The translations under genes were made by a program, and so were the position numbers. 64,000 bases of DNA from a virus (taxonomy: Duplodnaviria > Caudoviricetes): the IMG/VR virus record IMGVR_UViG_3300031998_000052, positions 12,631 to 76,630 of that record; one strand, given 5' to 3'. The notes beneath the pieces are model-generated. The model saw nothing but the letters and a program-made list of their open reading frames with translations. It was not told the DNA's origin and did no database searches. This document shows, one piece after another, positions 5,847-62,065 of the stretch (positions are counted from its first letter, which is position 1; the number at the start of each line of letters is the position of its first letter).

Positions 5847-5854
5847 TATTTGCC

Positions 5855-6627: not shown

Positions 6628-7173
6628 ATGAAAAAAGTTACAATCGAAATCCCTGAGGGAAAGGCATTGAAGTTCAAGGACGGCGCCTACGTCCTGGTAG
6701 ATGACAACGTGATGGAGCGCATCAAGACCTTCGACGATGCGTGCCGCGAAGTGACCGGCAAGTCCGAGGAGGAGTGGCTGGCCGAGAATGAGACGGATAA
6801 GATGGAGCCGGACGTGCTGGCATACCTCAAGATGCGCATCATCGTTGCCGTCCTCAACGAAGGATGGAAACCCACGTTCGAGGATGGTGAGACTCGGTAC
6901 TACCCTTACTACTGGCACTACACCAAGTCCGAGTGGGAGGGCCTGAGCGCATCCAGGCGGAAGGAACTGGAGCCTACGGTCTGCCTCGTCGGCGGTAGCT
7001 CGTCTGACGGGTCGAAGTCGGGGCCGCTCTGCGTGAGCTCGCTCGACGCCTGGTCGGACGCGCGCTCGAGCCTCGGCGCCCGCCTTGCATTTAAGACGGG
7101 GGAACTCGCCCGTTATGCCGGGAAGCAGTTCTTCGACATCTTCAAGAAATTCTACTACGATGGAGTGCTTTGA
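6628..7173 (+). CDS. Remote DGR target protein carrying variable repeat VR2
   Basis: Encodes VCLVGGSSSDGSKSGPLCVSSLDAWSDARSSLGARLAF, a CLec-type VR matching the TR. Confidence 0.85.
   Translation: MKKVTIEIPEGKALKFKDGAYVLVDDNVMERIKTFDDACREVTGKSEEEWLAENETDKMEPDVLAYLKMRIIVAVLNEGWKPTFEDGETRYYPYYWHYTKSEWEGLSASRRKELEPTVCLVGGSSSDGSKSGPLCVSSLDAWSDARSSLGARLAFKTGELARYAGKQFFDIFKKFYYDGVL
6979..7089 (+). repeat. DGR variable repeat VR2
   Basis: 111-nt ungapped match to TR 25113-25223(-); 18 mismatches, 14 at TR adenines; all 12 mismatches in the last 72 nt are at TR adenines. Confidence 0.95.
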
Positions 7174-7624
7174 AGTATGCGTTCTCCTGAGGGGAACAGT
7201 TAGACAAGAGGATCCGCACTGCCCTTCCCAGTGGAGGGGCAGCGGATGCTACGATATTGACGCGCCCGCAAGCCAGCGGGTGACGGTGACTGTACCTGCC
7301 AATAATGAGGGATTGGCGAGAAACCTGGCCAGCAATTATTGCTACGAGGGTGAGGGAGGATGCGAACTTGAGAGCGTGGATGATGTCGAGATTAAATGCG
7401 TCATCCCCTGTGGCGAGTGCGACGATCCTGGCATGGAATTTGATTGGGGAGAATTGGAGGTGGTTGAGGATGATGGCCCCGATCCGGATGAGCGTGACTG
7501 ATATGAGGGGGGGGGGTAAATTGGTGCCTGAGATGCTGGCACTGGAACAAGAATGAGAAGAAGTGCGTGGCTGAGGCCGGAGACTTCTGCAAGGTGTTAA
7601 ACGATTATTTCAAGAAGAGAGACG

Positions 7625-7969
7625 ATGAAAGCAAAACAACTCATGCTCGGAAACTACGCCCTATACAACGGGCTGGTTGTACGGGTCCGCAACATACATG
7701 ATAACGTGTTTCTCGACGGAGAGGATGAGTCTGTCGAGGTTGTGTACGATGACGGCGTTGTCGTTTTGGTGGATCCTTGTTCGCTTGAGCCGATTCCTCT
7801 CACGCCCGAAATCTTGGAAAAGAACGGGTTTTCAAGAAACGGTCTTGATATTGCCATTTTTGACAGGAAGGGAGGAGATGATTTCGTAGGTGCAGCAAAC
7901 TTGGAATTTGTCCACGAACTCCAGAACGCCCTTCGCCTCTGTGGAATAGAATACGAAATAACACTTTGA
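7625..7969 (+). CDS. Hypothetical protein, paralogue of 15887..16258
   Basis: Shared EPIPLT/EPLPLS and VHELQ..L..CGI motifs. Confidence 0.7.
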   Translation: MKAKQLMLGNYALYNGLVVRVRNIHDNVFLDGEDESVEVVYDDGVVVLVDPCSLEPIPLTPEILEKNGFSRNGLDIAIFDRKGGDDFVGAANLEFVHELQNALRLCGIEYEITL

Positions 7970-7972
7970 GAT

Positions 7973-8884
7973 ATGAGCAAAATCAAGATTGGCGCCAAGG
8001 TCACGGCGAAAGAGAGTCCTACAAAAGTGACCGTAAGCGGTACGTTCCAGGGATACGAACTCGAAGACCAGGAGGACCCCACGTCCATCTGCGGGAAGGT
8101 CTTCTACGTCAAGGACGGTAAGCTGTACCTTGCACATGTGTACGTTGACAGTATTAAGGTGTGTGATAGCGAGGATGAGAGGATAAGGAAAGAGTTATTA
8201 GATGCCGTTGATAAAGCAAGAGTCTTTGACATTGACAAGGATGTCGCAGATAGATGGACGGCTTGGCTCGAAAAGCAGAAAGAGCAGAAGCAAGAAATCA
8301 AGATTGTTATTCCGAAATTCCGAGTTGGAGATATTGTTATAAAATCCACAAAAGAGAAATGGGAAAACCCATGGAAGATAACGCACATCAGAGAAGACGG
8401 ATATAATATAGAGTCAGTTGATACTTACGGTGGAGGATTTATAGGATTCAGTTTTGAAGGTGAATACGAACTTGTAGAGCAGCCCGCAGAGTGGAGTGGG
8501 GAAGATGAGTCAGTTGTTAATCTTATTTTAAAAGAATTAGAACAGGACAAGAAGAACCAACCGGATTATAGTAGGCACTTCACAAGGTTAATTTCTTGGC
8601 TTAAGTTCCTTCCAAAAAGATTTAATTTTTCATCAAAGCAAGAGTGGGACGAGAATATTATTCGCAAAGCCATAAAAGAAGTTGGTTTAACCCAGCACCA
8701 AATAGATTGGTTCAAAATCAATGTATTTCCACCCAAGCAAGAGTGGAGCGAGGAGGATGAGGAAAATCTTAGTGATATAAAGTGTGCTCTTTATGATTAT
8801 TACGAAGAAGAGCGTGTGGAAGAACTCTATAATATGATCAAGTCCCTCCGTCCTCAGCCTCATTGGAAGTCGAGCGATGAGTAG
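7973..8884 (+). CDS. Mosaic hypothetical protein with repeated EW(S)xEDE modules
   Basis: AEWSGEDE, QEWDEN, QEWSEEDE repeats; composition becomes AT-richer within the gene. Confidence 0.7.
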   Translation: MSKIKIGAKVTAKESPTKVTVSGTFQGYELEDQEDPTSICGKVFYVKDGKLYLAHVYVDSIKVCDSEDERIRKELLDAVDKARVFDIDKDVADRWTAWLEKQKEQKQEIKIVIPKFRVGDIVIKSTKEKWENPWKITHIREDGYNIESVDTYGGGFIGFSFEGEYELVEQPAEWSGEDESVVNLILKELEQDKKNQPDYSRHFTRLISWLKFLPKRFNFSSKQEWDENIIRKAIKEVGLTQHQIDWFKINVFPPKQEWSEEDEENLSDIKCALYDYYEEERVEELYNMIKSLRPQPHWKSSDE

Positions 8885-9346
8885 ATGATAGCTCTCGGTT
8901 TAGCAACAAATCTTATTTGTGATAGTGAAATCAAACTGCTTGAATCCTTATACTCTGATCTCAAGAAACTGATGTAAAACCGTAGGGTGCGTGGTATGTA
9001 GATTACCCCGATGTAACTACCTGCTCTCCCATATTGAGGAACGCACCCTTTTTGATTTAGATATGAAACCAAGAGTAAAAATAAATGGTAAAAGTTATTA
9101 CCAAGAATGGAAGCCTGGAGATACTGGTGTTGTAGATGGGCATTGCCGAGAGGTTTATGAATTTTCACGTCAAGAGTCAATTGATTAAATATGTTGCTCG
9201 CCATTTCTATGCACTTGGACTTAACACAAAAAAGGATGATTAAGTATGGAAGATTATATCAAAGTTGGCGAATTGAAGCAGTTCATCTACGACCTCATCA
9301 AGAAGGACAAGGCCGAGAAGGACTATGACGAATTAAAGGAGAATTT

Positions 9347-10033
9347 ATGTTCACAGTCACAGTAATAATTCCCTGCTATAACATGGAGCGCACCGTGGGC
9401 GATGCCATCCGAAGCGTCCAGGCCCAGACGTTCAAGAACTGGAACCTGGTGGTCGTTGACGATGGCTCCACGGACGGCTCGTGGGAGCAGATCCTGCTGG
9501 CCATAGGAGAAGACCAGAGGTGCACGGCGATACATAAGGAGAACGGAGGCGTAGCAGCGGCCAGAAACGCCGCTATTGAGCGTTCGTGCTCCGAGTGGAT
9601 ACTTCCCCTGGATGCGGATGACAAACTCGCTCCACGGGCTTTATACGAGTATGCCCTGGCCGTGCAACAGAATCCGGATGCAGACCTCATCGTCCCGTGG
9701 GTCCACCACATCAGTCCGGAGAAGGACTGGCTCGTCCGGCGCCAGTGGAAGGGTTATGACTCTCTGCTGCAAAACAACTGCCTTCCGAACTCCTGCATGT
9801 TCAGACGGGCCGGTTGGCAGTATGCCGGAGGATACCGGGACGGGACTATGTACGAGGACTGGGAGTTCTGGATCAGATATCTCTTCCCGGAGGCGAAGGT
9901 GGTGGTTGTCCAGAAGCCGCTCATCGAGTATGCGGTGCGCCCGGGAAGCCGGGTGAGGGAGGCCGTCAAGAGACACCGCGAGGAGGTGGAGATTATCAAG
10001 AAACTAAACCCGGAAATCTATGGCAACGCTTGA
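9347..10033 (+). CDS. Family 2 glycosyltransferase
   Basis: VIIPCYN, VVDDGSTDGS, NGGVAAARN, LDADD and EDWEFW motifs. Confidence 0.9.
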   Translation: MFTVTVIIPCYNMERTVGDAIRSVQAQTFKNWNLVVVDDGSTDGSWEQILLAIGEDQRCTAIHKENGGVAAARNAAIERSCSEWILPLDADDKLAPRALYEYALAVQQNPDADLIVPWVHHISPEKDWLVRRQWKGYDSLLQNNCLPNSCMFRRAGWQYAGGYRDGTMYEDWEFWIRYLFPEAKVVVVQKPLIEYAVRPGSRVREAVKRHREEVEIIKKLNPEIYGNA

Positions 10034-10394
10034 CTACATCAAGGCGCTCTTTACGCCTGATAAGTTGAAGAAATTCGTTGACGAGAACGTGGCCTGGATG
10101 TACGAAGAGACCGAACCTGCGGACGTAATCTCAGAGTCCTTTCAGAACATGTTCGAGAAGGAGATGAAATGGCTCGCTTCCTGCATTGACGAGACGTCCA
10201 GAAGGGCCATTGAGATGTACCAGAGGTCCGCCCGTCCGATTTTATTTCTCAATGGAGCAGAAAAAGCGCCAAAGATTCCAGCCGACCCGAACGTATTGCT
10301 TCCACTTAACCCTGGAGTAGAAGCAAAGTTCTCGGAAGACATAGCACGCCTTACAGAAGAAATTTTCAAACAAACCCAAATACCAAAGTTATGA
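10020..10394 (+). CDS. Hypothetical protein
   Basis: ORF overlapping both neighbours. Confidence 0.65.
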   Translation: MATLDYIKALFTPDKLKKFVDENVAWMYEETEPADVISESFQNMFEKEMKWLASCIDETSRRAIEMYQRSARPILFLNGAEKAPKIPADPNVLLPLNPGVEAKFSEDIARLTEEIFKQTQIPKL

Positions 10395-11041
10395 GCAAAG
10401 AAAGACACAATTTCTTGAAGGAGTACAAACTGTTCAAGGCTTGCGAGAAGGAAGACGCTCTGCGGCAGAACATGGAACGTGTGTACTTCCAGGGCGGAAA
10501 CGCCTACGCTACGGACGCGCACATCATGGTGAAGGTGCCGCTCGCCTACTGCACCACGTTCGAGGACGAAGAGATCCAGGCCCTCAACGGCTTCTGCATC
10601 CACCACAAACTGCTCAAGATGCTGTACGATTTCGATGTCGTCACCATCAAGCGCACGATGGCCGCCGAAGATGCCTACGGCAACCTTCTGGAGCAGGCAG
10701 AAGAGGTCGTGTACATCAAGGTTGTCTGGCAGGGCCAGCAGATCCGCTTCCGCCTGGAGCGTTCCGACAAGGAGTTCGTTCAGAACTTCGAGACCATCCT
10801 GGCCACCGAGACCGGACACACTCCTATCAAGCAGATCGGTATCAGCCCGTCCAGGTTGAAGCAGATAGCCGAGGCTATCAATATGGACCACATCAACATG
10901 GCCTTCACTACGGCCAAGGATAAGATTTTTATCCGCTCCACCAACGAGGAAGACCAGAAGGCCGGCCCGATGGCTATCATCATGCCCATCGTTACGGATG
11001 CCACCCTGCCCGGCATGGAGGAGGAACCCGAGGAGGAATAG
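10391..11041 (+). CDS. Sliding-clamp (DnaN)-like protein
   Basis: VYFQGGNAYATDAHIMV and C-terminal AIIMPI. Confidence 0.45.
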   Translation: MSKERHNFLKEYKLFKACEKEDALRQNMERVYFQGGNAYATDAHIMVKVPLAYCTTFEDEEIQALNGFCIHHKLLKMLYDFDVVTIKRTMAAEDAYGNLLEQAEEVVYIKVVWQGQQIRFRLERSDKEFVQNFETILATETGHTPIKQIGISPSRLKQIAEAINMDHINMAFTTAKDKIFIRSTNEEDQKAGPMAIIMPIVTDATLPGMEEEPEEE

Positions 11042-11049
11042 TTTAACCT

Positions 11050-11145
11050 GGGGCGGAAAAGCCTGGCGTGAGTCAGGCAGGTGCGTTACTTTACGCTAAA
11101 ATACAATCCGTGAAATCAGACCATTATGACACGCGCCGCCGCCCC
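11050..11145 (+). ncRNA. Unclassified intergenic structured RNA candidate
   Basis: GGGGCGG/CCGCCCC closing stem; GCCTG/CAGGC and GCGT/ACGC hairpins; loop GCGTG complementary to CACGC. Confidence 0.45.
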
Positions 11146-11159
11146 AATTTCTTTCAGTT

Positions 11160-12076
11160 ATGGAGTTCAATATTAAGACCAAATACGAAGTCGGAGACAA
11201 GGTATGGATTATGGTTGAGAATTTTCCTCAGCGCGTAGCCATCCGAAAGATAACCATCCAGGGTGCAGAGATTGACGCCAATGGCGGATCGGAGAATTTC
11301 GGAAGGGTAACATACTACCTTGAAGGCATTGACCGGTATCAGGGCTTCTGCGAGGAGCAACTGTACGACACCTTCGACCAACTTCGCGACTGGGTTTTCC
11401 AAGAAGAATTGAGAGACCAATGAGTTACAAGGAATTTGTTGACCTGGTGGAGAAAATGCGCGAACACCAGCGCAATTTCTTCACGTTCCGGAAGCAGTAC
11501 GACCTGGACGAATCGAAGCGACTGGAGAAGATCGTGGACGCCGAGATAAAGAGCCAGAAGGAAGGAGGAGGGCTGTTCGATGGGGTGTGATTGCTGTCCG
11601 AAAAGCAACTACGGGGCCGAGAAGTGTTCGGCCTCTCTCAAGTACCGGATGAACTTCTGCGAGGTTACATTTCCGGGTGAAATCAAGGAAGGGCGCGGGT
11701 CCAACTACACTGCGCCAAAGAAGAAACGCAAAAAGCACAAGCGATGACAATAATTCGCACTGACCACCCGGTAGCCAGGAAGACGCACGTCTGCGAAATT
11801 TGCGGATGCGCCATCGAGCCGGGCACCAGGTATTTCCATCAGGTCAACGACTATGATGGATTCTGTGACTTCAAGGCCCATGAGGAGTGTACGGATTATG
11901 AGATGTCGAACCGCGAGCCATACGATGACGAGGGATGCGGACCTGACCAGACGGCGTGCTATTTGCTGGACGATCTGGAAGATATTCTCGGGAGCCGGGA
12001 AGCGGCCAGCAACTTCTATCATGAGCATAGTATGTATGAGTGTGTAAAATTTGTTCAGGAGCATGGAAACAGTTAA
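11160..12076 (+). other. Small hypothetical genes (11160-11423; 11744-12076 with CxxC/Cys-His residues)
   Basis: Packed ORFs; CEICGC motif in the second. Confidence 0.6.
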
Positions 12077-12198
12077 GTATCTCTGCGAGTTCTTTTTCAC
12101 GAACTTCTGGCATTGGCTTGGCCTGGTGATCCTCATCGGGTTCGTACCGGCGATTCGGTTTATCAAGGTAATTGACAACAGTAAAAACGAAAAGAGTC

Positions 12199-12840
12199 AT
12201 GCAGAAGATAATGTTCAATGACCAGTACGGTCTGACACAGGCCGTCCTTGATGGCCGCAAGACTATGACGAGGAGAGCGGTATCGGCGTGTATCAACAAA
12301 AAGGCGTGCTTGTATCGTCAAGAATACTTTGATAATACGCTCGATGCTCTTTCGGTGGAAGATTCATTGTTGGAGTTTTCCTCTTTCAAGCCCGGCGAGG
12401 TCGTTGCCGTGGCGCAGAGTTATATGGATGCGGGAAATGACCCGCACATGTTACAGTTTATTTACATCAAGGAACCTACTATCCTTCCTTTTTCTGATGG
12501 CCTTCCGGTTCTCGGATATGTTGAAGCCCCAATAATGTACCACGCAGGATGGAAGAACAAAATGTTTGTTCACCCGACAATGATGCCTCACCAAATCCGA
12601 ATTACGAACATCAAGGTGGAAAGGCTCAAGGACATCAGCGATGAGGACTGCATGAAGGAAGGGATTGTAAAGGTGCCGCAAGGTTTCTATTCCTTTGAAG
12701 GATGGGGAGGAAAAACGACACAATGGTACGCAATGACTCCACGCGATGCCTTCGCAGTCCTCATCAACAAGGTGTCCGGAAATGGAACATGGGGGTCCAA
12801 TCCCTATGTGTATGCGTATGAATTTGAACTCGTAAAATGA
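12199..12840 (+). CDS. ASCH/PUA-like domain protein
   Basis: IMFNDQYGLTQAVLDGRKTMTRR, NKMFV, VERLKDIS, NPYVYAYEF. Confidence 0.75.
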   Translation: MQKIMFNDQYGLTQAVLDGRKTMTRRAVSACINKKACLYRQEYFDNTLDALSVEDSLLEFSSFKPGEVVAVAQSYMDAGNDPHMLQFIYIKEPTILPFSDGLPVLGYVEAPIMYHAGWKNKMFVHPTMMPHQIRITNIKVERLKDISDEDCMKEGIVKVPQGFYSFEGWGGKTTQWYAMTPRDAFAVLINKVSGNGTWGSNPYVYAYEFELVK

Positions 12841-13881
12841 TTATATCAAAGACGGAAGGACACATTACGGGCTTTCAGTGGATGGATCCTCAGATAGGCC
12901 CGGAGGTTCACGTTCGTTCAGGTCGTGACATTTTGTTTCCGTTCAATCAGGTTCCTCTACCCGCAGATGGAACGAGGCTTGATAAGTATCGGATGAAAAA
13001 AGTAAGAATAACCGTAGAACTGATTGACAATGATTAAGTTTTTTAAGAATCTCTTCCACAAAAAACAGAAGGTGGAATACGTAGAGGTTTCCATCCATGG
13101 CTACCTGGCCAAGGACAGAAACAAGAAGGAAAATTTTTTCAGGGAGGAACCGGAACGAAACCGGGACGTCTGGTGGTCCAGGGAAAATCCATGGCCGCAT
13201 GGCCGGTGTTTCAACCCGTACAATAAACTGGAACTACCGCACCGCGACATGTTCGGGGACGCGGTGAAGTGGACGAATGATCCGGTGGAGTGCGATATCA
13301 TCTTTAGAATCAAGAAGCCATGAGAAAACTGCTGAATTTCCTGCTCGGCCCGAAGAAGATGAAGGCCCAGGACGAAGACATCATCTTCGAGGCTCTTGGC
13401 ATGGTCTATGACGTATGCCATGATGACATCGTTGAACTATCCTTCCGGTATCCGGAGGGTCACGAGGTAATTCACGCGCTCAAACTTCCAGGCCACGACC
13501 TTCGCATCGGCCAGTTCGTTACGGTGACGTACAGGAAGGGGCGCAAGTTGGCACGATAGTTGCATTATGAAAGCGAGCGAGACACAGATTCTTGGCCCGG
13601 GAGATTACCGGATGGCGCCAGGTTATAGGGGCTATGTCCTTCATGGCGTACTCCACGTCGTTCCGTACATACCGAGAGGGATAGCGCCGGATGACAAGCG
13701 CTGCCGGGACTGCAAGAACCGCATCGAGGGCCGGAATAAGAGGGGTGCATACTATGACGCCTGGGTATGTAAGATGCGCCCGAAGGAGGTTTATCATGGC
13801 ATCCAGTTGTACTACCGGTGCGGAGAACTGGACCATATTTGTCAACACTTTAAGGATAAGAATAATGGCACAAAGGACTAA
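12837..13881 (+). other. Small hypothetical genes (12837-13037, 13024-13323, 13320-13559, 13567-13881)
   Basis: Overlapping + strand ORFs. Confidence 0.6.
13549..13564 (+). promoter_or_regulatory. Sigma54 -24/-12 consensus match
   Basis: TGGCACG-ATAG-TTGCA. Confidence 0.35.
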
Positions 13882-14749
13882 AGACATTTTTACGAGAGAC
13901 TGGATCATCGAGAACTCAGTTGACATTCTGAGCAACTATGAGCCAGGTGTTTTGACCATCCGTGGACTTCACTACCAGTTAGTGAGCCGTGGGATGACGA
14001 ATGACATTCAGCATTACAAGAGGGTCGTGGCTGCTACCGGCCAGGCAAGATGGGACGGCATCATCCGGTTCGACGCTTTCAGTGACCGCGACCGTGCGCT
14101 GGCCTGCAACACCATCGCCGATCCGGTTGACCTGGAGGAGGAAGAGTCCACGGCGAAGCGCCAGATCAAACTCTGGATGGAACACTACTACCGCAACAAG
14201 TGGGAGAATCAGCCGTACTACCCGGAGGTATTCATCGAGAAGAAGGCCCTGGAGGGCGTCTTCTACAAGCCGTGCCTCGCTCATGGAATTGCGCTTGGCG
14301 CCTGCAAGGGCTACCCATCCCTCACCTTCCTGCACGACGCTGCTATCCGCTTCCAGGAGGCTGTTGACCACGGCAAGATGCCCATCATCCTCTATTTCGG
14401 TGACTACGATCCGTCCGGAGAGGACATCCCGAGAGCGCTCAAGGAGAACATCATGAAACTCGGGTGCGAGGAGATCGAGGTTCGCCGCATCAGCCTCGTC
14501 GAGGACCAGGTGATTGCCTGGCACCTGCCGCCCGCTCCCACGAAGGTTACGGACTCCCGCTCTGCCAACTGGGACGGCCTGGGCCAGGTTGAGTTGGATG
14601 CCGTGAAGCCGGAGAAACTTATAGAACTTCTGGACGATGCCGTCGCGGACATCTTCGATGAGGAGTTGTACGATGAACTGAAAGACATCGAGAAAGAGGA
14701 GCGAGAGACCTACGTAGCAGACATGAAGGAATACGTTCAGAGTTTGTAG
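13865..14749 (+). CDS. Topoisomerase VI subunit A-like winged-helix/TOPRIM protein
   Basis: TIRGLHYQL (winged-helix Tyr), EVFIEK, KGYPS, YFGDYDPSGEDI, ELDA; start at ATG 13865. Confidence 0.7.
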   Translation: MAQRTKDIFTRDWIIENSVDILSNYEPGVLTIRGLHYQLVSRGMTNDIQHYKRVVAATGQARWDGIIRFDAFSDRDRALACNTIADPVDLEEEESTAKRQIKLWMEHYYRNKWENQPYYPEVFIEKKALEGVFYKPCLAHGIALGACKGYPSLTFLHDAAIRFQEAVDHGKMPIILYFGDYDPSGEDIPRALKENIMKLGCEEIEVRRISLVEDQVIAWHLPPAPTKVTDSRSANWDGLGQVELDAVKPEKLIELLDDAVADIFDEELYDELKDIEKEERETYVADMKEYVQSL

Positions 14750-14750
14750 T

Positions 14751-16476: not shown

Positions 16477-17032
16477 AGTAGAAGTAACACAGGAGACCTC
16501 CTGGAAGAGGGCGCTCAATGCGGCCCGTCGCACCGTTGGCAAGGAACCGCTCGACAAGGAACCGAGCCGCGAGTTCAAACTGAAAAGCCTGTTCGCAGAG
16601 CACAGTCAGATCAAACTTGTGGAATACCGAATCGCCTTCAAGGACTTGAAGCAGTGGATCGGCGTTCATCTGCTCAGGCACCCATTCATCCTTCCGTTTA
16701 TCCACTCCCAGCGCGATGACCGGCGCAAGAATCCGGTTCCAAGGGACGAGATGCCGCAAGGGTCTCCTAACGACCAGGACTTTTACGTCAACGCCCAGGC
16801 CGTCATCAACATCTCACGAAAGCGCCTCTGCAACAAGGCGTCGAAAGAAACGAGAGAGGCGTGGCAGATGGTCAAGGACAAGATGAAGGAAGTTGACCCA
16901 GAGTTGGCCACCGTCATGGTCCGACAGTGCGTCTATCGAGGGTTCTGCCCCGAGATGGGATGCTGCGGATTCTGCAACACGCCTGAGTATCAGAAGGAGG
17001 TTGAAGCCTACCGCTCCGCCAAGCCTGAATAA
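16466..17032 (+). CDS. ThyX-like flavin-dependent thymidylate synthase homologue
   Basis: AEHS, HLLRH...HSQRDDR, INISRKRLC, MVRQCVYRGFCPE resemble ThyX segments; canonical RHR motif altered. Confidence 0.65.
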   Translation: MALEVEVTQETSWKRALNAARRTVGKEPLDKEPSREFKLKSLFAEHSQIKLVEYRIAFKDLKQWIGVHLLRHPFILPFIHSQRDDRRKNPVPRDEMPQGSPNDQDFYVNAQAVINISRKRLCNKASKETREAWQMVKDKMKEVDPELATVMVRQCVYRGFCPEMGCCGFCNTPEYQKEVEAYRSAKPE

Positions 17033-17035
17033 AGA

Positions 17036-17071
17036 GAAGCCCCGCCAGACCGCAAAAACTGGTGGGGCTTC
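17036..17071. terminator. Convergent terminator hairpin
   Basis: GAAGCCCCGCCAG/CTGGTGGGGCTTC stem between converging operons. Confidence 0.75.
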
Positions 17072-17083
17072 TTCCCGGAGATA

Positions 17084-17494
17084 TCACATCTGCGGGTCGT
17101 GACAATGCGGGCACGAGAGTTGACACACAATGTCTGATATTTCCCTTGATATATTGCCGCCAAGATAGGCAACCTCCTCGCCATACGGGTCCATCCCATC
17201 CTCCTGCCCAACGTGCTGTATGATATGGATTATCTCATGCACGATGGAGTCAAGTACCTGCGGACCGGAGCTTGCCATCCCGACGCCATAAACCGTCCTC
17301 CTTATGGGAGGATTGCTGTAAGTGAATCCCTCGTTCAAATATCCGGCCCGGACGTTTTCTGACACCTGATGGATGATAGAATCTGGCGCGTCTGCCCAGA
17401 GCAGGGCCGACTGGATGCGTTCCAGGTCCCTTGTGTCAAAACAGAAGAGGAACAATACATCCCAGCGCCGGATATGGACGAGCCTTTCAATCAT
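17084..17494 (-). CDS. Hypothetical protein (module gene 6), HExxH motif
   Basis: VHEIIH...EEVAY, zincin-like. Confidence 0.65.
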   Translation of the reverse strand: MIERLVHIRRWDVLFLFCFDTRDLERIQSALLWADAPDSIIHQVSENVRAGYLNEGFTYSNPPIRRTVYGVGMASSGPQVLDSIVHEIIHIIQHVGQEDGMDPYGEEVAYLGGNISREISDIVCQLSCPHCHDPQM

Positions 17495-17895
17495 TACAGC
17501 AGGTCCTCCCAGGGAACGGAAACGCCCTTCGCGTTCAGTTTTGCCAGGAACTCGTCGAAAGCCCGCGTCTCATAGCCGTCGGGATCGTCGATGTAGTCCT
17601 TGACGAATTTCGCCAGGTGGGCCTCGTCGGTGATCGAGGAGCCGAAGTAGTCCGAGCGGGCCATGGCATAAACATACGGGATGTCATACCCCATATCTTT
17701 CTCGACAGTGACGGAGATCCGTTTCAGGACGTCCATCACCTGCTCCTTTTCCATGAATTCGGCCTTCTTCCCGTTCTGGTCCGTCATCATGGAAACAGCC
17801 CAGCGATACATGGGCTTTGAGAAGTGAAAGTCATTAAACGACAGGTATTCACGCATACCCTGAGGCAGTATGTCGTAAGAGTCTAACCTTGACAT
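17494..17895 (-). CDS. Hypothetical protein (module gene 5)
   Basis: TAATG coupling with the next gene. Confidence 0.75.
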   Translation of the reverse strand: MSRLDSYDILPQGMREYLSFNDFHFSKPMYRWAVSMMTDQNGKKAEFMEKEQVMDVLKRISVTVEKDMGYDIPYVYAMARSDYFGSSITDEAHLAKFVKDYIDDPDGYETRAFDEFLAKLNAKGVSVPWEDLL

Positions 17896-17939
17896 AGTTG
17901 TTTCTTTTTAAGGGGCGAGTTTCCCCGCCCCGGTTGTTT

Positions 17940-18209
17940 CTACATGAACCGACCGCGAGAGTCGCGCATCCGGCGCTCTCCCCACATTCCGCGTTCGCCG
18001 TAGCCATCGTGCATAGGGTAGTTCTCCCTCATGCCGTATCCGTCGTTACGCATCCCGTAGAAGCGCTCGCCGTAGCGGTCTTCCATTTCGCAGGCCAGGT
18101 CGTGCATTTCCTCGACGGCTGCACGGGCCTTTTCTGCCGCACGGAAGAAAGCCTCGGCCTCGGAGCCGCTGTGCTCCCTGCGGCCAAAATCGTAAACTCG
18201 GTATCCCAT
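17940..18209 (-). CDS. Low-complexity protein with YG(E/M)R repeats (module gene 4)
   Basis: YGER, YGMR, YGMR, YGER, WGER; ends RDSRGRFM. Confidence 0.75.
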   Translation of the reverse strand: MGYRVYDFGRREHSGSEAEAFFRAAEKARAAVEEMHDLACEMEDRYGERFYGMRNDGYGMRENYPMHDGYGERGMWGERRMRDSRGRFM

Positions 18210-18211
18210 TT

Positions 18212-18733
18212 TTATTCCTCCTTGGTTTTCTTGCCCAGGGTCTTCGAGATCATCCCGGTCAAGGCCGCAATCTGGTCGCTCATTCCGGCAATCTGCTCCT
18301 CCAGCTTGTTGATCTTTGCAGACTGCTCGCGCTCCCTTTTCATTTCCGGGTGGAATTCAAGGAGAATCGCATCGCAGTTGCTCACGGTCTTCTCGTAGAA
18401 GCCCCTCTTTTCCAGTTCGGAAGCGGCCTGGCTCCGCATAGCCCCTATCTCATTCAGGACACCATCTCTGGTCTCGCTGAGGATAATGCCCCTGTCGGGG
18501 AATTCGGCTATGGAAACGTTGGTCGGAATCCTCTGGAACAGTTCGGTCTTCCCGTTCATTTCGAGCGTGAGATCAAACATCGGGGACATACTATTGATAC
18601 CGCCTTGCGGCATCTGGAAATTGAACTGCGGAGGGTACTGACTGCTTAGCTGTGCGACCTTCGCGGTTGCGACGCTCGGGCCATTCTTGAAAATGACGAA
18701 CACCGGCGTCCCAGGACGTAAATTACTGAGCAT
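18212..18733 (-). CDS. Hypothetical protein with C-terminal coiled coil (module gene 3)
   Basis: ORF in the co-oriented module. Confidence 0.75.
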   Translation of the reverse strand: MLSNLRPGTPVFVIFKNGPSVATAKVAQLSSQYPPQFNFQMPQGGINSMSPMFDLTLEMNGKTELFQRIPTNVSIAEFPDRGIILSETRDGVLNEIGAMRSQAASELEKRGFYEKTVSNCDAILLEFHPEMKREREQSAKINKLEEQIAGMSDQIAALTGMISKTLGKKTKEE

Positions 18734-18745
18734 GGTTGTTTGTTG

Positions 18746-19156
18746 TTAAATGATTGGTGAAGTTGTTTGAAGGACACCGTTATACCAGTCGTAGAAGACT
18801 GTGATAATGCCGGTTCCTGTCAGGTCGGCGGCTGTGACTGCCACCCCGCCGAAAGACGTCAGCGCACGGGTCTGCCCGTTGAGCGTCAGGCGTACCGGAA
18901 GTGTTCCGGTCGTACCCTCTGGAATCGCGTCTGCTATGTTGATGGTCAGGTATCCGACCGGTGGAATCCTCCGGAAACCCAGAGTGAAATCCACCGCGTC
19001 GGAACCGACCGTCACACCAGTAGTGCGAAGATACGGGATGCCATTCGCGTTCGTCGTTACATTAACGCATCCGAACATAGCATTGCCCTCCTTAGAATAC
19101 GAAACCGTTTCCTCCGAAACCGCCATAACCGTTCCAGCCTCCGTAGAAGCCACCAT
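18746..19156 (-). CDS. Beta-rich hypothetical protein (module gene 2); start uncertain
   Basis: Thr/Gly/Val-rich ORF in the module. Confidence 0.65.
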   Translation of the reverse strand: MVASTEAGTVMAVSEETVSYSKEGNAMFGCVNVTTNANGIPYLRTTGVTVGSDAVDFTLGFRRIPPVGYLTINIADAIPEGTTGTLPVRLTLNGQTRALTSFGGVAVTAADLTGTGIITVFYDWYNGVLQTTSPII

Positions 19157-20018
19157 TCACGTAGGGAGTGGTGTTCACAGCGGCCAACTGGGGCCACTGG
19201 ACGGGAACAGTCTGGGGCATCTTGCACTTGATGTCATCCACCTCGCGGGCAATGGGGCTGAGCATGGCCGCAATCGCGTTGGTCTGGCGGGCGTTATCGG
19301 CTTCGTTGCGAAGCTGGGTGATAATCTCTGCCTGACGGTTGATCTCGGCCTGCATCTCGCGTTCCTTCACGGCGCAGAACTCGCGGGTCATGTCGGTGTG
19401 GAGACCGTTGATGGCGCCTACGATGGAGGCGGTGTTGCGGTCAGCCTGGGACCCGAGGGTGTTGGTCTGCTCGATGGTGCGAATCTGATTCTGATAGCCC
19501 TGCTCGACGGTAAGCTGGCGCATCTCGCAGCAGCACTGACAAAGCTGGCTGGCGATGGCTGCATTGCCGCTCTGGATGGCGTTGATTACCTGCTGGCCGG
19601 TGAGGCCGAGGTTGGCGCCGACAGTGGCGATTGCGCCCTGCACGGTGTTGATGGCCAGGCGCACGCTGTCGATGTCGCTGTTCAGCGTGGAAGCCAGCAG
19701 GCGGACGTCGGAGTCCGTGCCGTTGATGGCCTGGATGATAAGGTCGGTGTTCGCGTTGGCCGTAGCCTGGGCGCCGAGCGACGCAGCAGCGTTGCCGTTG
19801 CCATTGCCGCCCCAACCGAAGCCGTTGCCACCAAGGAATCCAGGGATCAGTCCACCGAGGACGCCACCCAGGATGCCGGTCAGGAAACCGCCACCGCCGA
19901 AGCCGAAGCCGTTACCCCAACCGAATCCATTGTTGCCATTCAGCGCAAAGGCGAGGGGAATGTTGCCCCAACCATTGTTCTGGTTGTCGGGCATGATGAT
20001 GGTTTTATCTTCTGCCAT
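19092..20018 (-). CDS. Gly/Asn/aromatic-rich protein with CQCCC motif and coiled coil (module gene 1)
   Basis: NNGWGN, GFGFGGGG, GFGWGGNGNGN; LCQCCCE; YGGWNGYGGFGGNGF tail. Confidence 0.8.
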   Translation of the reverse strand: MAEDKTIIMPDNQNNGWGNIPLAFALNGNNGFGWGNGFGFGGGGFLTGILGGVLGGLIPGFLGGNGFGWGGNGNGNAAASLGAQATANANTDLIIQAINGTDSDVRLLASTLNSDIDSVRLAINTVQGAIATVGANLGLTGQQVINAIQSGNAAIASQLCQCCCEMRQLTVEQGYQNQIRTIEQTNTLGSQADRNTASIVGAINGLHTDMTREFCAVKEREMQAEINRQAEIITQLRNEADNARQTNAIAAMLSPIAREVDDIKCKMPQTVPVQWPQLAAVNTTPYVNGGFYGGWNGYGGFGGNGFVF

Positions 20019-20089
20019 AGTAAATAGCTTTTTTGTTAAATAATTAGGTCCACGAATAGCGCTATCGTCGATACAAAGGTCAGCAAAAA

Positions 20090-20114
20090 GCCCACCCCTA
20101 TGAAGGAGTGGGCG
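20090..20114 (-). terminator. Rho-independent terminator
   Basis: GCCCAC...GTGGGC followed by a T run on the - strand. Confidence 0.6.
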
Positions 20115-20137
20115 AAATAAAGATAAGCCGCTGACAA

Positions 20138-20428
20138 TCAGTGATGTTTTGTCCAGTTCTTAGGTACAAGTTTGTGGAAGACGTTGAAGGAGTACATGCT
20201 GACGTTCCTCCGGGGCTTCGGGATCATCTTGCGCTTGATGATGCCGTTGACAGCAGCCTTCGATTTGCCGTAGTGTTCGGCCAACTCGTCGGACGTGGCC
20301 CAGATTGGAAGGTTTTCGGAAAGGACGCGGTACATGGCGTCTGTCTGCTCCTTAGTGCAATCACCGCGCTTGAATTTTGCGCGAAGGAGGTCGAACACCT
20401 CCAGGATGAAATCGATTTTCTCGTCCAT
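20138..20428 (-). CDS. Small putative DNA-binding protein
   Basis: SDELAEHYGKSKAAVNGII, HTH-like. Confidence 0.55.
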   Translation of the reverse strand: MDEKIDFILEVFDLLRAKFKRGDCTKEQTDAMYRVLSENLPIWATSDELAEHYGKSKAAVNGIIKRKMIPKPRRNVSMYSFNVFHKLVPKNWTKHH

Positions 20429-20826
20429 TATCTGAAAAAGACTTTGTAGGCCGCGATCAGAAGCAATACAGTCATAACAATAATCACCGCGTTAATAATA
20501 TATGCTTCCGATACGGTCAGGGTTATGATATAGCAATCAATAAAGCCCACAATTTGCGGAATTGCGGGAAGAATACATGCTGTCTTGTGCCATTTACAAA
20601 GGCGGAGGAGTTTGGATAGAATTAAAAACGCAACGATACAAACAGGGGAAATGTAGAACAGTGTATCAAGTTGCGATTGGGCCTCCTCTGGAATGAAATT
20701 ATAGACGGACAGAGTGACGATGCTGAGCGCTGAATAGACGAAAGGAAGAACTTGCACCGCTGTTGTTACACGGCGCAACGTATCAACGAGTCTTTTAAGA
20801 TCTGCTCTTCGGTCTTGGTTGTCCAT
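20428..20826 (-). CDS. Four-TM membrane protein
   Basis: Four hydrophobic segments; AT-rich. Confidence 0.65.
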   Translation of the reverse strand: MDNQDRRADLKRLVDTLRRVTTAVQVLPFVYSALSIVTLSVYNFIPEEAQSQLDTLFYISPVCIVAFLILSKLLRLCKWHKTACILPAIPQIVGFIDCYIITLTVSEAYIINAVIIVMTVLLLIAAYKVFFR

Positions 20827-20985
20827 TCTGCGTAGTCTCTACCCTTACGGTCAACTGCGCCTTTGTCTGGAACATCCTTTTTCCTTTTGGCTTCCCAGCG
20901 GCGCCGGTGACACGAATAGTGCTACTTGCAACTTTCGTGCCACTCTTGCCGGACCTTGCCGTTATTTTGACGCCTGCTTTACCCA

Positions 20986-21621
20986 TTACCTAAGAATCAG
21001 ATTGTAGGAGGCCGTAAACTCGGCCGAGAAGCCATGCTGGAAGGATTTGTCGGCGAATGTCATGCCGTAGCCGACGGACGGCGAGAACTGCCAGCGCCCG
21101 GACCAGAAGTCCGCCCGGATGCCGGCCCCCAGGTAGAAAGTCCCGGGAAGGTAGAGGCGGCCGCCCACGAAGGGAGACAACGCGAACTTCGGTGGAACCG
21201 GATAGGTATCGGTGATATACTTCGTTTCCTGGAAGGACTTGTGCCAAAGCATCTTCACATCATATCCAGTAGCCTCGCACTCGTAGGTCTTGTTGTCCGT
21301 GAAGTGATACCTGGATATCGGGACGGCGATGTAAGAGGTGTCGTGGTACGTGACGATCTTCGGCTTTGCAGACAGAGAATCGCGGAACTCGGCCAGGGCC
21401 TTCTCGTAATCCTCGATCTGAGAAACGGGGACGAGTTTGAATCCGGCCGGAATTGACGTCTCCTGTGGCTTGTAGTCGGTTATCGTGTCGCGGATGGTAA
21501 CAGTGTCCTTCTGCGGCACGGGAATGTTCCTGAGCGCGTTTCTGCGCCCAGAAAGGAAACCTGCCCCGAAAAGCAGGAGCAGGATTCCAAGGAAGATGAG
21601 GACGTCTTTAACCTTGTCCAT
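20986..21621 (-). CDS. Membrane-anchored lysis-cassette protein (spanin-like candidate)
   Basis: N-terminal TM, DTVTIRDTI, beta-rich C-terminus; lies downstream of the amidase. Confidence 0.6.
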   Translation of the reverse strand: MDKVKDVLIFLGILLLLFGAGFLSGRRNALRNIPVPQKDTVTIRDTITDYKPQETSIPAGFKLVPVSQIEDYEKALAEFRDSLSAKPKIVTYHDTSYIAVPISRYHFTDNKTYECEATGYDVKMLWHKSFQETKYITDTYPVPPKFALSPFVGGRLYLPGTFYLGAGIRADFWSGRWQFSPSVGYGMTFADKSFQHGFSAEFTASYNLILR

Positions 21622-21794
21622 TATCCAATGAGACCGTTAAAGAACTTCTTGGCCGTAGGGAAGGCCATTGCGGCCAAAGCGACGACACAGATGGCGATGA
21701 ACCAGGCTTTGCAGTAGGCTGCGTAGCCGAAGCCACCGATGGCGCCCACGGCATAGGCGCAAAGGCCAAAGAAATAACCGAATTTTTTGAGCAT
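21621..21794 (-). CDS. 57-aa two-TM holin candidate (not in ORF track)
   Basis: Hand translation MLKKFGYFFGLCAYAVGAIGGFGYAAYCKAWFIAICVVALAAMAFPTAKKFFNGLIG; TAATG overlap. Confidence 0.6.
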   Translation of the reverse strand: MLKKFGYFFGLCAYAVGAIGGFGYAAYCKAWFIAICVVALAAMAFPTAKKFFNGLIG

Positions 21795-21802
21795 AGTTGA
21801 GA

Positions 21803-22102
21803 TTATTTAATGAATGGCCACACCAGCGTACCGATGACGCAGTAAAGCCACTCGGGTTTGTCACAGGGGTTGTCGAAGTCACAATCCTTCGTCTGACTCC
21901 GCTTGTAGTGGAGGCCATATAGGGCATTGTGAGTCGCCCACTCCTTTTTCAGTGAATTGTCCGTCCGCTCGAAGATCTTCTTCTTTCCGTGGATGGACTT
22001 GATTTGGTTGAGCGTCTTCTGGAAATCCGCTTTCGGGACAGTATAACTGTCGTAGATGGTCAGGACCGAGCCGTCCTCGCCGCTGAATTTGTACTTTACC
22101 AT
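21803..22102 (-). CDS. Hypothetical protein
   Basis: ORF in the lysis cassette. Confidence 0.6.
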   Translation of the reverse strand: MVKYKFSGEDGSVLTIYDSYTVPKADFQKTLNQIKSIHGKKKIFERTDNSLKKEWATHNALYGLHYKRSQTKDCDFDNPCDKPEWLYCVIGTLVWPFIK

Positions 22103-22218
22103 AGTTATGCGATTTTTAAGATGGAATCCTTGTGGCGAGGTTGAACGTCAAGCAAAGGAGCCTGGCATCGTACCCAACGACGTTGAATACCATGCCAGGT
22201 GTTACCTTCGTTATCTGA

Positions 22219-22869
22219 CTACTTCCTTCCATATTTGGCAATATAGTCCTCAATGCCCTGGACGTGAATATGGATCATGGCGCCCAGGCCGGCATCGGAT
22301 TTCAGAAACTCAACGTCATCCTTGTTGTCCTGGAACAGGTTCTCTGTGAGAACGGCAGGGCATGACGTGTGGCGTAGGATGTAGAAGGCAGACTCAATGT
22401 CAGGATCTCCGTCGGTATAGTCCGTTCTGATAGGCTTCTGCTTCCCGCCATTCTTGAACTTTTTGGTGTAGCCTGCCTTCTCCAATTCGGTGACGGCAAC
22501 GGCATGGATACAGGTGGCCAGATCGTCCGCTTTCGTCTTCCCTGGTGACGTATAGACGCACCATCCCTGGGCGTCATGCCACTGCCGGTCCGACTTGGCT
22601 GCGTTCACGTGGACGGAAACCAGGATGGCATCCTTTACCTTGTTTGCGCGGCGCACACGCTCCTCCAGGGAGACGTCCCTGTCTTCCGGTACGAGCAGTT
22701 CTGCATCATATCCATCAAACGTGAGAACAGAAACGATGCCCTGAGCACACTTACGCGCCCACTCATACTCGCGAAAGTAGAGCGGGCTGTTTTTGAGGCC
22801 ATTGGAAGCGTCCGGGGAACATTTCCCGGGAGTATCTATTCCGTGGCCATTGTCAACCCAGATTTTCAT
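22219..22869 (-). CDS. Endolysin, N-acetylmuramoyl-L-alanine amidase (Amidase_3)
   Basis: DNGHG, SLEERVRRAN, VSVHVNA, PAVLTENLF. Confidence 0.92.
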   Translation of the reverse strand: MKIWVDNGHGIDTPGKCSPDASNGLKNSPLYFREYEWARKCAQGIVSVLTFDGYDAELLVPEDRDVSLEERVRRANKVKDAILVSVHVNAAKSDRQWHDAQGWCVYTSPGKTKADDLATCIHAVAVTELEKAGYTKKFKNGGKQKPIRTDYTDGDPDIESAFYILRHTSCPAVLTENLFQDNKDDVEFLKSDAGLGAMIHIHVQGIEDYIAKYGRK

Positions 22870-22893
22870 ATTTATGTGAGTTGTTTCTATGTT

Positions 22894-23907
22894 TTATATG
22901 TTACTAATTATCGTAGCCCAAGGTAAATTAGGAATATCTCCAGACGTAATAAAGGCATAAGATTGGCTGTTATTCACTCGAATAACGACCTCAATCAACC
23001 CTCCGTTTTTCGGCCTACGATACGTACTCAATGACGTCCTTATGTATGCTTGGTTCTCTATATTTATGGCGTCACTGCAAATATACCCGCCACTTGTCAC
23101 GTTTATATGTAATCCGCCACCCCAATCATAACCAAACGGGAAATATGGGACAAGGAAAGAAAACCTACATCCATCGAGATCGCTGTTCGCCGGTATATGA
23201 ATATGAACACCATCGCTGTATTGTGACACCTGGCCGGTCAAGTCAATAAATTTTGCCGACGTGGATTTCAACTGATAATGATTTTCTGTTGTATTATGAG
23301 ACGAGCCATAGTTCACGACCTCAGAATACATATAAGTTAAATCGGAATTACCTAAAGCCACAAACGGTATGCGAAGACCTCCAGCAAATTCACCGCCATT
23401 GCAAAATAGATTTCCATTTTTATCAAATTTGGTTTTTGCATTAGCAGCAAGCGTTGAACCGAGAAAAAGAGGATAGTTCGTATCACCGCCCATGTCTGCC
23501 ACAACGGTATCACCATTTTTGACCTGAACGTGTTTTGCTACAAGGCTATTCACGTCGATATAGTCTGCTGATATTGCCTGCGCCAGAAGAACCGGCGTTA
23601 CTATCGGCTGGAACTGGTTTACATCCTCCCAGTACGTGTTGTCACTGAGAGGAATCAACTGATGGTCGGCCTGGTGTGTAATCTTGCATTTTCTGGCCAC
23701 GAAAGACGAATCGCCAATCATAGCCATTCCCATATTGCAAGCCACGTCAATTATGCGAACACCATCCGTCTCAAGAGAAGAGTCGTTCCTGTATTCCTTT
23801 CCGTCTTCCCAGAGAGAAATACGATAGGTAATACCTCCATTTCCGGTATCACCCTTTCTGGCCCTTGCGACAGTCTGACTGCCTTTAACCTTGACCGTGC
23901 CTGCCAT
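22894..23907 (-). CDS. Tail fibre/receptor-binding protein with AT-rich C-terminal half
   Basis: Start reassigned to MAGTVKVKG (ATG 23907); KGDTG motif; ISADYIDVNSLVAK; composition shift near 23560. Confidence 0.6.
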   Translation of the reverse strand: MAGTVKVKGSQTVARARKGDTGNGGITYRISLWEDGKEYRNDSSLETDGVRIIDVACNMGMAMIGDSSFVARKCKITHQADHQLIPLSDNTYWEDVNQFQPIVTPVLLAQAISADYIDVNSLVAKHVQVKNGDTVVADMGGDTNYPLFLGSTLAANAKTKFDKNGNLFCNGGEFAGGLRIPFVALGNSDLTYMYSEVVNYGSSHNTTENHYQLKSTSAKFIDLTGQVSQYSDGVHIHIPANSDLDGCRFSFLVPYFPFGYDWGGGLHINVTSGGYICSDAINIENQAYIRTSLSTYRRPKNGGLIEVVIRVNNSQSYAFITSGDIPNLPWATIISNI

Positions 23908-23914
23908 AAGACTC

Positions 23915-24262
23915 CTAATTATCGAGAGAATCCATGACCACATGGGCAATCTCCTTTGCTTTAGCCCTCCACTCCTGGAAAGCCTCCAGTTCGGCGGCGT
24001 GTTCGGGAGTATCGGAGCCATTGGCCAGGATAGCCTCCACCTGGTCCTGAGGGAACTTGTCGCGGACGATAGCAGACACGATCTTGCCGTATTCGACGGC
24101 CCCTTCGATGTCCACGTTCTCGAAGACCAGGACTTCAATTTCCTCTCCGTCCACTTCCTTGGTCTCCGTGTCGTAATCGAAGTTGATGCGGGTGATAGCG
24201 CCCTCGCGGAGCACTACGACGCCAGCGGGGACTTCCCCGTTGTAATCAGCATATACTTTCAT
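23915..24262 (-). CDS. Small tail-region protein
   Basis: YGKIVSAIVRDKF...FQEWRAKAK, resembling small tail-fibre-associated proteins. Confidence 0.7.
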   Translation of the reverse strand: MKVYADYNGEVPAGVVVLREGAITRINFDYDTETKEVDGEEIEVLVFENVDIEGAVEYGKIVSAIVRDKFPQDQVEAILANGSDTPEHAAELEAFQEWRAKAKEIAHVVMDSLDN

Positions 24263-24829
24263 AAGTCTATAAATTTGTACGTGAATTTTCCTCTTCCGAG
24301 ATCGACGCGGGTGATGCCCACGTTTTCGACCGGAAACACTTTTTGACCGGCCTGCTCTGCCTTCCGGCAGTCATCCAGGATGTTCTTCATCTGGAACGAA
24401 CTGATGGTGAACTTAATCTTCTCTCCGTCTTCCTTCTTCACCATGACCATGTACCGGTCGGTGTTCATCTTGGACGGGTCCCGCAGGTCCGGCGTTGGCA
24501 CGTTGGCCTCAAAATCAAGGACCGTGAGGCGCTGGTTCAGCACCTCAAGGATGTTACCTTTCCGGCACTCAAAGAACTTCTTCCCGTCCTTTGAACTGGC
24601 CTTCTCGATAGATATTCCTTTCTCAGCGAATCCCATGATTGGTTGTCCTGTTATTGTTTTCCAGAGTTGGGCGCAGTCTCCATACATGCACAAGCCCCGG
24701 TAACTGTCAATAATTTCCTTTCCTCTTCGACCGCTTGGCCTTGCCGCCTTTCTGAGAGCGCTGGATGGCTAACCGCAAGTTATCCTCGTCCGCAACCTTC
24801 TCCAGGATATGCCCTACTTTTTTCGTCAT
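24259..24829 (-). pseudogene. DGR reverse transcriptase remnant with internal deletion and frameshift, in frame with a ~125-aa C-terminal domain
   Basis: ATG 24829 gives MTKKVGHILEKVADEDNLRLAIQRSQKGGKAKRSK (RT N-terminus-like), stopping at 24707; another frame gives KEIIDSYRGLCMYGDCAQLWKTIT (RT C-terminus-like); no YxDD core between them. Confidence 0.8.
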
Positions 24830-24830
24830 A

Positions 24831-24838
24831 CAAAGATA
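24831..24838 (-). promoter_or_regulatory. Bacteroidota -7 box directly before the RT start
   Basis: TATCTTTG-T-ATG. Confidence 0.6.
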
Positions 24839-24839
24839 C

Positions 24840-25112
24840 GCATTTTTTTATTCCCTGCAATAGTGATACTGCCCGGGACGTTCGAGAGTGTCCATCGGGG
24901 TTCCACGCACGACGCTTACAACGCGCCGGTCAATGGGAACCACACGCTCGGACAAACCTACATTAGCCCCGCTCGCAGGCCCATACCTCCGGGCCGCTCT
25001 CCCGCATACGAGATGTTCTGACTCTCCGGCGCGACCTGCCGCCGGGGTCAAGGCTGAGGAGGTTCGCCGGCCGGTGTCTATCCGGCAAGGCGATGAAACA
25101 GGGTTTTCACTT
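24840..25112 (-). ncRNA. DGR RNA spacer between TR and RT
   Basis: GC-rich non-coding stretch with several short inverted repeats, in the position of the DGR spacer. Confidence 0.5.
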
Positions 25113-25223
25113 TGTATGGCGGGCGCCGATGTTCGAGTTCGCGTTCGACCAGGCGTTGTTCGAGTTCACGTAGAGCGGCCCCGACTCCGACCCGATAATC
25201 GAGCCACCGCCGACGAGGCAGAC
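25113..25223 (-). repeat. DGR template repeat (TR)
   Basis: AAC-rich (GTG AAC TCG AAC AAC GCC TGG TCG AAC GCG AAC TCG AAC ATC GGC GCC CGC); VR frame has an upstream stop and no start; aligns to both VRs. Confidence 0.95.
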
Positions 25224-61970: not shown

Positions 61971-61982
61971 TTGTCTATTTTG

Positions 61983-62055: not shown

Positions 62056-62065
62056 ATTTTATTCT

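Follow-up and report, generated by a model that had tools for sequence, protein, structure and literature searches.

The DNA analyzed here, a window of 64,000 nucleotides (nt), is bases 12631-76630 of the 76.6-kb viral record IMGVR_UViG_3300031998_000052 (Duplodnaviria; Caudoviricetes), and it carries the remains of a diversity-generating retroelement (DGR). A single template repeat (TR) corresponds to two variable repeats (VRs). One (VR1) is in an adjoining tail-type gene; the other (VR2) belongs to a small gene that lies 18 kb from the TR, is encoded on the opposite strand and does not form part of the structural module. On the basis of the repeats, the population-wide variability of the remote target and comparisons with related phages, we consider it very likely that this is a two-target DGR of the Quimbyvirus/LoVEphage type, in which the core of the reverse transcriptase (RT) gene has been deleted, leaving the VRs most likely as frozen records of earlier diversification. 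Because the RT core is deleted, we regard the element as a degenerate DGR and not as an autonomous one. Its repeats and target genes are as follows.

6628..7173, plus strand: second (remote) DGR target gene, coding for a 181-amino-acid (aa) protein of the phrog_11581 family with a conserved N-terminal domain, VR2 and a conserved C-terminal helix

6979..7089, plus strand: VR2, codons 118-154 of the 181-aa protein, with 93/111 ungapped identity to the TR

25113..25223, minus strand: TR, 111 nt, partly decayed, with five ancestral adenines (positions 19, 20, 26, 29 and 37) replaced by comparison with the TRs of two related phages, G001 and G002

25368..26684, minus strand: first DGR target gene, coding for a 438-aa tail-module protein (phrog_5302 'tail protein', E=3.4e-35)

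25410..25520, minus strand: VR1, at the 3' end of the tail-type target gene, with 90/111 identity to the TR

With the 111-nt TR as the query, an ungapped scan of the window on both strands at a threshold of at least 60% identity recovered only three places: the TR itself, VR2 and VR1. An earlier note on this DNA had claimed that the TR aligns to VR2 without gaps and that all 12 mismatches in the 3' 72 nt fall on TR adenines; the computed alignment confirmed both statements exactly (12/12, P = 3e-8). Over the full length, 14 of the 18 mismatches of VR2 are at TR adenines (binomial P = 5.6e-8), as are 13 of the 21 mismatches of VR1, the other 8 being at other bases (P = 1e-5); the binomial values take the adenine share of the TR, 20/111, as their basis. 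The adenine bias that the note expected of a three-way comparison is thus present at both targets. The 4 non-adenine mismatches of VR2 all lie at decayed TR positions, and when scored against the ancestral TR reconstructed from G001 and G002, every mismatch of VR2 is at an adenine, as read off the alignment with no separate computation. The last two "adenine" mismatches, at TR positions 107 and 109, constitute a fixed difference in all of the genomes examined (CATACA in the TR versus C(T/C)TGCA in the VRs) and look like an initiation of mutagenic homing (IMH)/IMH* boundary and not a product of mutagenesis. Both VRs lie near the 3' ends of their open reading frames (ORFs) and share a GC-rich block followed by C(T/C)TGCA, a pattern kept in G001, G002 and LoVEphage; by analogy with the IMH/IMH* of the Bordetella phage BPP-1, this 3' block and pentamer presumably serve as the acceptor. 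The hairpins located 3' of VR1 are conserved, while those 3' of VR2 are not convincingly so.

The related phages reproduce the arrangement with RT-bearing elements. G001 is a 75.2-kb relative from another sample that was independently assembled and is collinear with the record from end to end, the VR2-TR interval included. Because the two genomes are collinear throughout and carry the same two targets, an assembly chimera, which the earlier note had named among the circumstances that would refute its claim, is excluded. The G001 orthologue of the 181-aa gene is 85% identical, and its two VRs differ from their own TR exclusively at adenines (16/16 and 16/16 mismatches). The same holds for VR1 of G002, whose DGR region we refer to as L002 (13/13), and nearly so for Bacteroides LoVEphage (OY731433), in which VR2, on the strand opposite the TR, has 19/20 and VR1 17/18 of its mismatches at adenines. 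Comparing a VR with the TR of a different genome adds non-adenine mismatches, whereas VR2 of G001 fits its own TR in 16/16 cases and that of LoVEphage matches the LoVEphage TR, as expected if each VR tracks the TR of its own genome.

Independent support for VR2 comes from the variability of the protein family. Among 60 homologues of the 181-aa protein with at least 76% identity, entropies of 2-3.6 bits are found at 12 codons only (124, 126, 127, 130, 135, 137, 139, 140, 144, 146, 148 and 149), each of which corresponds to a TR codon with an adenine at position 1 or 2; the mean entropy outside codons 118-154 is 0.28 bits. Because the variability is confined to adenine-bearing TR codons, VR2 qualifies as a genuine DGR target across the population of this phage group. 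That the TR/VR2 similarity might be an ordinary duplicated or recombined segment can therefore be dismissed: nothing speaks for it except that this genome lacks an RT, and it is refuted by this codon-restricted variability and by the adenine-only mismatches at the orthologous site of RT-bearing relatives, with an adenine bias whose P value is near 1e-8.

The 181-aa protein matches phrog_11581 (E=4e-34), and no Pfam family was found for it. Its homologues are numerous (1836 clusters at 90% identity and 2883 clusters at 50%) and are characterized by the motifs NEGW.P.F and RYYP in the conserved N-terminal region. The earlier note had described it as a protein without a signal peptide or transmembrane segment in which the VR is followed by about 27 codons, and both features were recovered: the highest Kyte-Doolittle mean over 19 residues is 0.98, so that there is no transmembrane segment or signal-peptide-like hydrophobic stretch, and 27 codons remain 3' of VR2. 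An AlphaFold2 model built from 120 sequences has a mean predicted local distance difference test (pLDDT) score of 80.5 and a predicted template modeling (pTM) score of 0.73, with pLDDT below 50 across residues 119-149; a model from 44 sequences was poor (pLDDT 56.8). Comparisons of the 120-sequence model with Foldseek and VIA-align yielded neither the C-type lectin (CLec) fold that the earlier note had expected nor any other convincing fold (best Z 3.6, with the VR residues 119-149 below a pLDDT of 50), a profile search of PDB sequences with the family found nothing, and a search of BFVD with the model retrieved unnamed phage or viral proteins only. Benler et al., for their part, report a CLec domain by HHpred (PMC8008677). 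The VR ends in G-A-R-L/P-A-F/Y, as in the Thermus DGR variable protein TaqVP (5VF4), but the match is not significant. The longer or fused members of the family showed no recurrent extra domain. One of them, the 244-aa protein P0153, has an N-terminal extension with a sub-threshold match to Tad2 (Thoeris anti-defence 2; E=0.0011, 19.9 bits versus a cut-off of 25), which did not recur in 9 other extended members and is a lead only.

The tail-type target is a different protein. It is 49% identical to the LoVEphage gene product that contains VR1, its family profile has a weak collinear match to 5VF4 that is not significant (E=1), and an exact look-up of the VR1 protein returned no record. In both BLASTP and profile-profile (hhalign) comparisons, the 181-aa and 438-aa proteins share only the 38 VR-encoded residues, and because hhalign aligned these 38 columns only, the two target scaffolds are unrelated at the level of sequence. 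We take the most likely role of the 181-aa protein to be the display, within infected cells, of a hypervariable binding surface carried by a conserved scaffold. The alternative is that it is a component of the virion, such as an accessory adhesin encoded away from the structural module, with VR2 serving host or surface recognition. Its VR segment and that of the tail-type target are 61% identical at the protein level and derive from the same template, and for certain phage DGRs with two targets it has been proposed that both diversified genes encode receptor-binding proteins (PMC10743442). Yet in this genome, in G001 and in LoVEphage alike, the gene lies on the opposite strand among nonstructural genes, directly after a recombinase-like gene, and the protein lacks a signal peptide or transmembrane segment and any likeness to the tail-type target outside the 38 VR residues. 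Although both arguments are indirect, they lead us to regard a virion adhesin as unlikely.

What remains of the RT gene lies downstream of the TR.

24707..24829, minus strand: RT gene stub of 40 codons, about 35 N-terminal RT codons followed by out-of-frame sequence and a stop

24721..24729, minus strand: deletion junction, with about 876 bp missing (L002 7958-8833, the RT palm/finger core) and a short purine-rich CGAAG/A microhomology

24259..24693, minus strand: remaining 3' portion of the RT gene (frame c), coding for the last segment of the RT and a phrog_19665-type C-terminal domain (E=6.5e-9), with the frame open

A DGR-clade RT next to the TR is present in L002, in a further relative (L003) and in LoVEphage, but not here. 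The RT that follows the TR in L002 and L003 is encoded by three overlapping ORFs in three frames, which match positions 95-274, 284-354 and 366-521 of phrog_1423 in succession. The passage from frame a through b to c (L002:7853-9297 and L003:7791-9301) involves two +1 shifts in A/G-rich runs, and the RT is also broken in LoVEphage (L001:34719-35534), whose annotated RT is 271 aa long; a three-frame RT was reported by Benler et al. (2021) as putative programmed frameshifting (PMC8008677). The stub in the window aligns to the start of the RT ORF of both L002 and L003. In blastn comparisons of the window with these relatives the alignment jumps from 7957 to 8834, and the missing segment of about 876 bp spans all of the RT catalytic motifs. 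Beyond it, 24259-24693 is 86-87% identical to the C-terminal part of ORF c of L002 and L003, the part that matches phrog_1423 'reverse transcriptase' at 366-521. A tblastn search of the 76.6-kb record with the LoVEphage RT gave a single 39-residue match just downstream of the TR and no RT elsewhere, and no RT-like YxDD context was found in any frame. The case for the apparent loss of the RT rests on this synteny and on tblastn.

The remainder of the cassette has been retained: the TR, the 283-nt spacer between the TR and the RT gene, both VRs and the acceptor-like 3' ends are present and about 87% identical to L002. No Avd was detected: PF05635 has no match anywhere in the 76.6-kb record, and the stretch from the target gene to the TR contains no ORF; the relatives likewise lack it and have the same gene order. 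The C-terminal part of the RT gene matches phrog_19665, a stand-alone phage family that corresponds to about 110 residues after the RT thumb, and its ORF is intact despite the core deletion. Given that this DGR type is devoid of Avd, we speculate that the phrog_19665-type domain might be an accessory factor.

The decay of the repeats is consistent with an RT loss that is not recent. All five of the window-specific changes in the TR, relative to both relatives' TRs (positions 19, 20, 26, 29 and 37), are at ancestral adenines, of which there are about 25. These changes (window 25182-25224, the 5' third of the TR) are A to G, G, T, T and G, and for all of them to fall on ancestral adenines by chance has a probability of about 6e-4. 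It thus seems that the TR received an adenine-mutagenized copy, through self-homing or conversion by a VR, and did not change by random drift. In addition, non-adenine mismatches make up 12/39 of the mismatches here versus 2/83 in the RT-bearing genomes (Fisher P = 1.6e-5). The loss of TR adenines together with the non-adenine mismatches in VR1 (8) and VR2 (4) suggests that the loss of the RT is old and not a slip of the assembly. The deletion of the RT core, the TR short of five adenines and the accumulated non-adenine mismatches are particular to this genome. On these grounds the cassette appears either to be inactive or, at best, to need an RT provided in trans, and diversification in this genome is probably historical and the system frozen. 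The earlier note's proposal that the same template also diversifies the 181-aa protein therefore divides in two: its architectural part, one TR serving two VRs of which the remote one is on the opposite strand outside the structural module, stands both here and in the relatives, while ongoing diversification is at odds with the deleted RT core, the lost adenines and the non-adenine mismatches.

Several points weigh against our interpretation. The RT deletion has been seen in a single metagenomic assembly, and an exact search for its junction in other viral and metagenome contigs did not find it, although the genome's own records were possibly excluded from that search. The lack of a Pfam RVT_1 match over the whole 76.6-kb record carries little weight by itself, as the relatives' RTs likewise score below the cut-off. 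A contig encoding an identical 181-aa protein (L016) is 100% identical in DNA over 14.3 kb, so that it is not independent and its identical VR2 is uninformative as to the frozen state. Finally, we infer both that the 181-aa protein is cytoplasmic and that it acts by binding, as we do the role of the 3' pentamer as IMH, and the CLec fold was not recovered. Some of these points favor a reading in which the deletion was created by the assembly or belongs to a defective minority, and the real population possesses an intact and active dual-target DGR; the junction does lie in a purine-rich, low-complexity stretch. Against this, the TR adenine loss and the non-adenine mismatches lie in other sequence than the junction and occur in none of the four RT-bearing comparators, and 0.9 kb of unique sequence is rarely dropped by assemblers. 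We accordingly hold an artefact or minority variant to be quite improbable. The mutated 5' third of the TR was not found by an exact search in contigs either, with the same possible exclusion of the genome's own records.

A cassette that is nonautonomous but still active, with a co-infecting or co-resident relative providing the RT in trans so that both VRs continue to be diversified, appears more doubtful still. The retention of the TR, the spacer, the VRs and the acceptor-like ends would suit it, and closely related phages with an intact RT do occur in similar samples. Recent homing should, however, have erased the 8 non-adenine mismatches of VR1 and the 4 of VR2 to their own TR, the TR is short of 5 of its approximately 25 ancestral adenines, and there is no second RT in the record.

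We therefore return to the frozen two-target DGR and propose the following mechanism for it. In the intact relatives, an RT produced from three overlapping frames would copy the TR RNA with adenine-specific errors, and the resulting cDNA would take the place of the homologous VR in two genes, at the 3' end of each. The first would be the gene for the tail-module protein adjoining the TR, with VR1, and the second that for the small phrog_11581 protein, which lacks a signal peptide and is encoded on the other strand, 18-21 kb away, in the nonstructural part, with VR2. The GC-rich block and C(T/C)TGCA at the ends of the VRs, as opposed to CATACA in the TR, would mark the acceptors in the manner of the BPP-1 IMH/IMH*. 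In the present genome, about 876 bp of the RT gene would have been lost between the short purine-rich microhomologies, after which the TR and VR1 would have been drifting.

The novelty implied by the earlier note does not survive comparison with the literature. Benler et al. (2021, Microbiome 9:78; PMC8008677) described in Quimbyvirus a DGR with an RT in three overlapping frames and two variable repeats, the second of which is distal to the structural module, on the opposite strand and among nuclease, methyltransferase and tRNA-ligase genes, and for this second target they proposed a part in the conflict between phage and host. In Dahlman et al. (2025, Nature; PMC12629997), a second VR that is distal and has counter-defence genes nearby is reported from four species of inducible gut prophages, with LoVEphage cited under the same reference. 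Phages of the LoVEphage type are available as isolates (PMC12629997, PMC12694917). More generally, remote DGR targets are a known but under-detected class (Roux et al. 2021; PMC8144416). As the 2021 and 2025 papers had already covered both architecture and protein family, the window adds only a divergent member. Like Quimbyvirus and LoVEphage, it has one TR, a VR1 in the adjoining tail-module gene, a VR2 in a small phrog_11581 protein encoded on the opposite strand outside the structural module, a three-frame RT in its intact relatives and no Avd. The tail-tip/DGR module is 43-49% identical in protein to that of LoVEphage, which also encodes a 194-aa homologue that is 35% identical to the 181-aa protein (in tblastn against LoVEphage records, 34-36% identity across 81% of its length). 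In contrast, TerL, the portal and the primase are only 25-26% identical, indicating a distant lineage. The neighbors of the LoVEphage homologue are methyltransferase, PAPS-reductase, radical-SAM and tRNA-ligase genes, in agreement with the published description, whereas in the window those of VR2 are not methyltransferases, a nuclease or a tRNA ligase; the deleted RT core and the decaying TR are further differences from both phages. A DNA search of the DGR region against GenBank phages gave no match.

Other characterized DGRs are less similar. The Mtd/TR/bRT/Avd system of BPP-1 resembles the present element in the adenine-specific flow from TR to VR, in the VR at the 3' end of the target ORF and in the GC-rich block followed by an IMH/IMH*-like difference. 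Unlike the latter, with its two targets (one of them remote and nonstructural), no detected Avd and a missing RT, BPP-1 has a single adjacent tail-fibre target, Avd and an RT in a single frame. In the cellular DGRs of Legionella and Treponema denticola one TR likewise serves VRs that are not adjacent to the RT, but these are chromosomal or belong to integrative and conjugative elements and have surface proteins or lipoproteins as targets, whereas here a phage element has a target without a signal peptide. The two-target phage DGRs of the tentaclins (Baykov et al. 2023; PMC10743442) share with the present case the use of one TR for the diversification of two distinct genes; the 181-aa protein differs from the tentaclins in having the VR near its C terminus and no Ig domain, and no relationship to them was detectable.

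With respect to function, a remote nonstructural DGR target implies that hypermutation is directed at a protein whose site of action is probably intracellular. An intracellular ligand-binding or anti-defence role for the 181-aa protein is a plausible hypothesis, which repeats published speculation (PMC8008677, PMC12629997). One could go further and conceive of the phrog_11581 proteins as cytoplasmic, DGR-programmable binders that capture or block variable host defence proteins, with the RT-less cassette representing either a lineage with one fixed useful specificity or a borrower of RT; we put this forward tentatively, as a possibility that is more probably wrong than right. If it were true, these binders would amount to adaptive counter-immunity, an idea that has already been floated in the literature. 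The window also provides an example of a natural state of DGR decay, in which the RT core is gone, the TR is losing adenines and the VRs are gaining ordinary substitutions. Such RT-less cassettes are internal controls for TR/VR pairs once homing stops, and DGR finders centered on the RT will miss them.

The gene neighborhood of the remote target includes two further recognizable genes.

5780..6622, plus strand: serine-recombinase/DNA-invertase-like gene (PF00239 Resolvase, E=2.8e-8; phrog_125, E=4.4e-10), ending 6 nt before the second target gene

9347..10033, plus strand: GT2-family glycosyltransferase gene (PF00535, E=6e-30), 2 kb downstream of the second target gene in a nonstructural block

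The recombinase-like gene and the second target gene are probably in one operon, and the pair is also present in contig L016. Together with small ORFs coding for unknown proteins, the recombinase-like gene and the GT2 glycosyltransferase, and not methyltransferases, are what surrounds the 181-aa gene, and the "counter-defence island" setting of Quimbyvirus is not evident around it here. The Logan contig SRR9008937 also carries the 181-aa protein. The phage, with a G+C content of 52%, is probably one of Bacteroidales, with animal-gut Bacteroidales as its hosts. The ends of the record repeat one another (895-1717 versus 75852-76630, the latter being window 63222-64000), with 127 identical nt preceded by about 715 nt at 81%, which has the appearance of a genome, circular or terminally redundant, whose assembly ran through two strain variants. 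Three tRNA genes (Met-CAT, Asn-GTT and Ala-CGC) are clustered on the minus strand at 61982-62914, close to the window's end.

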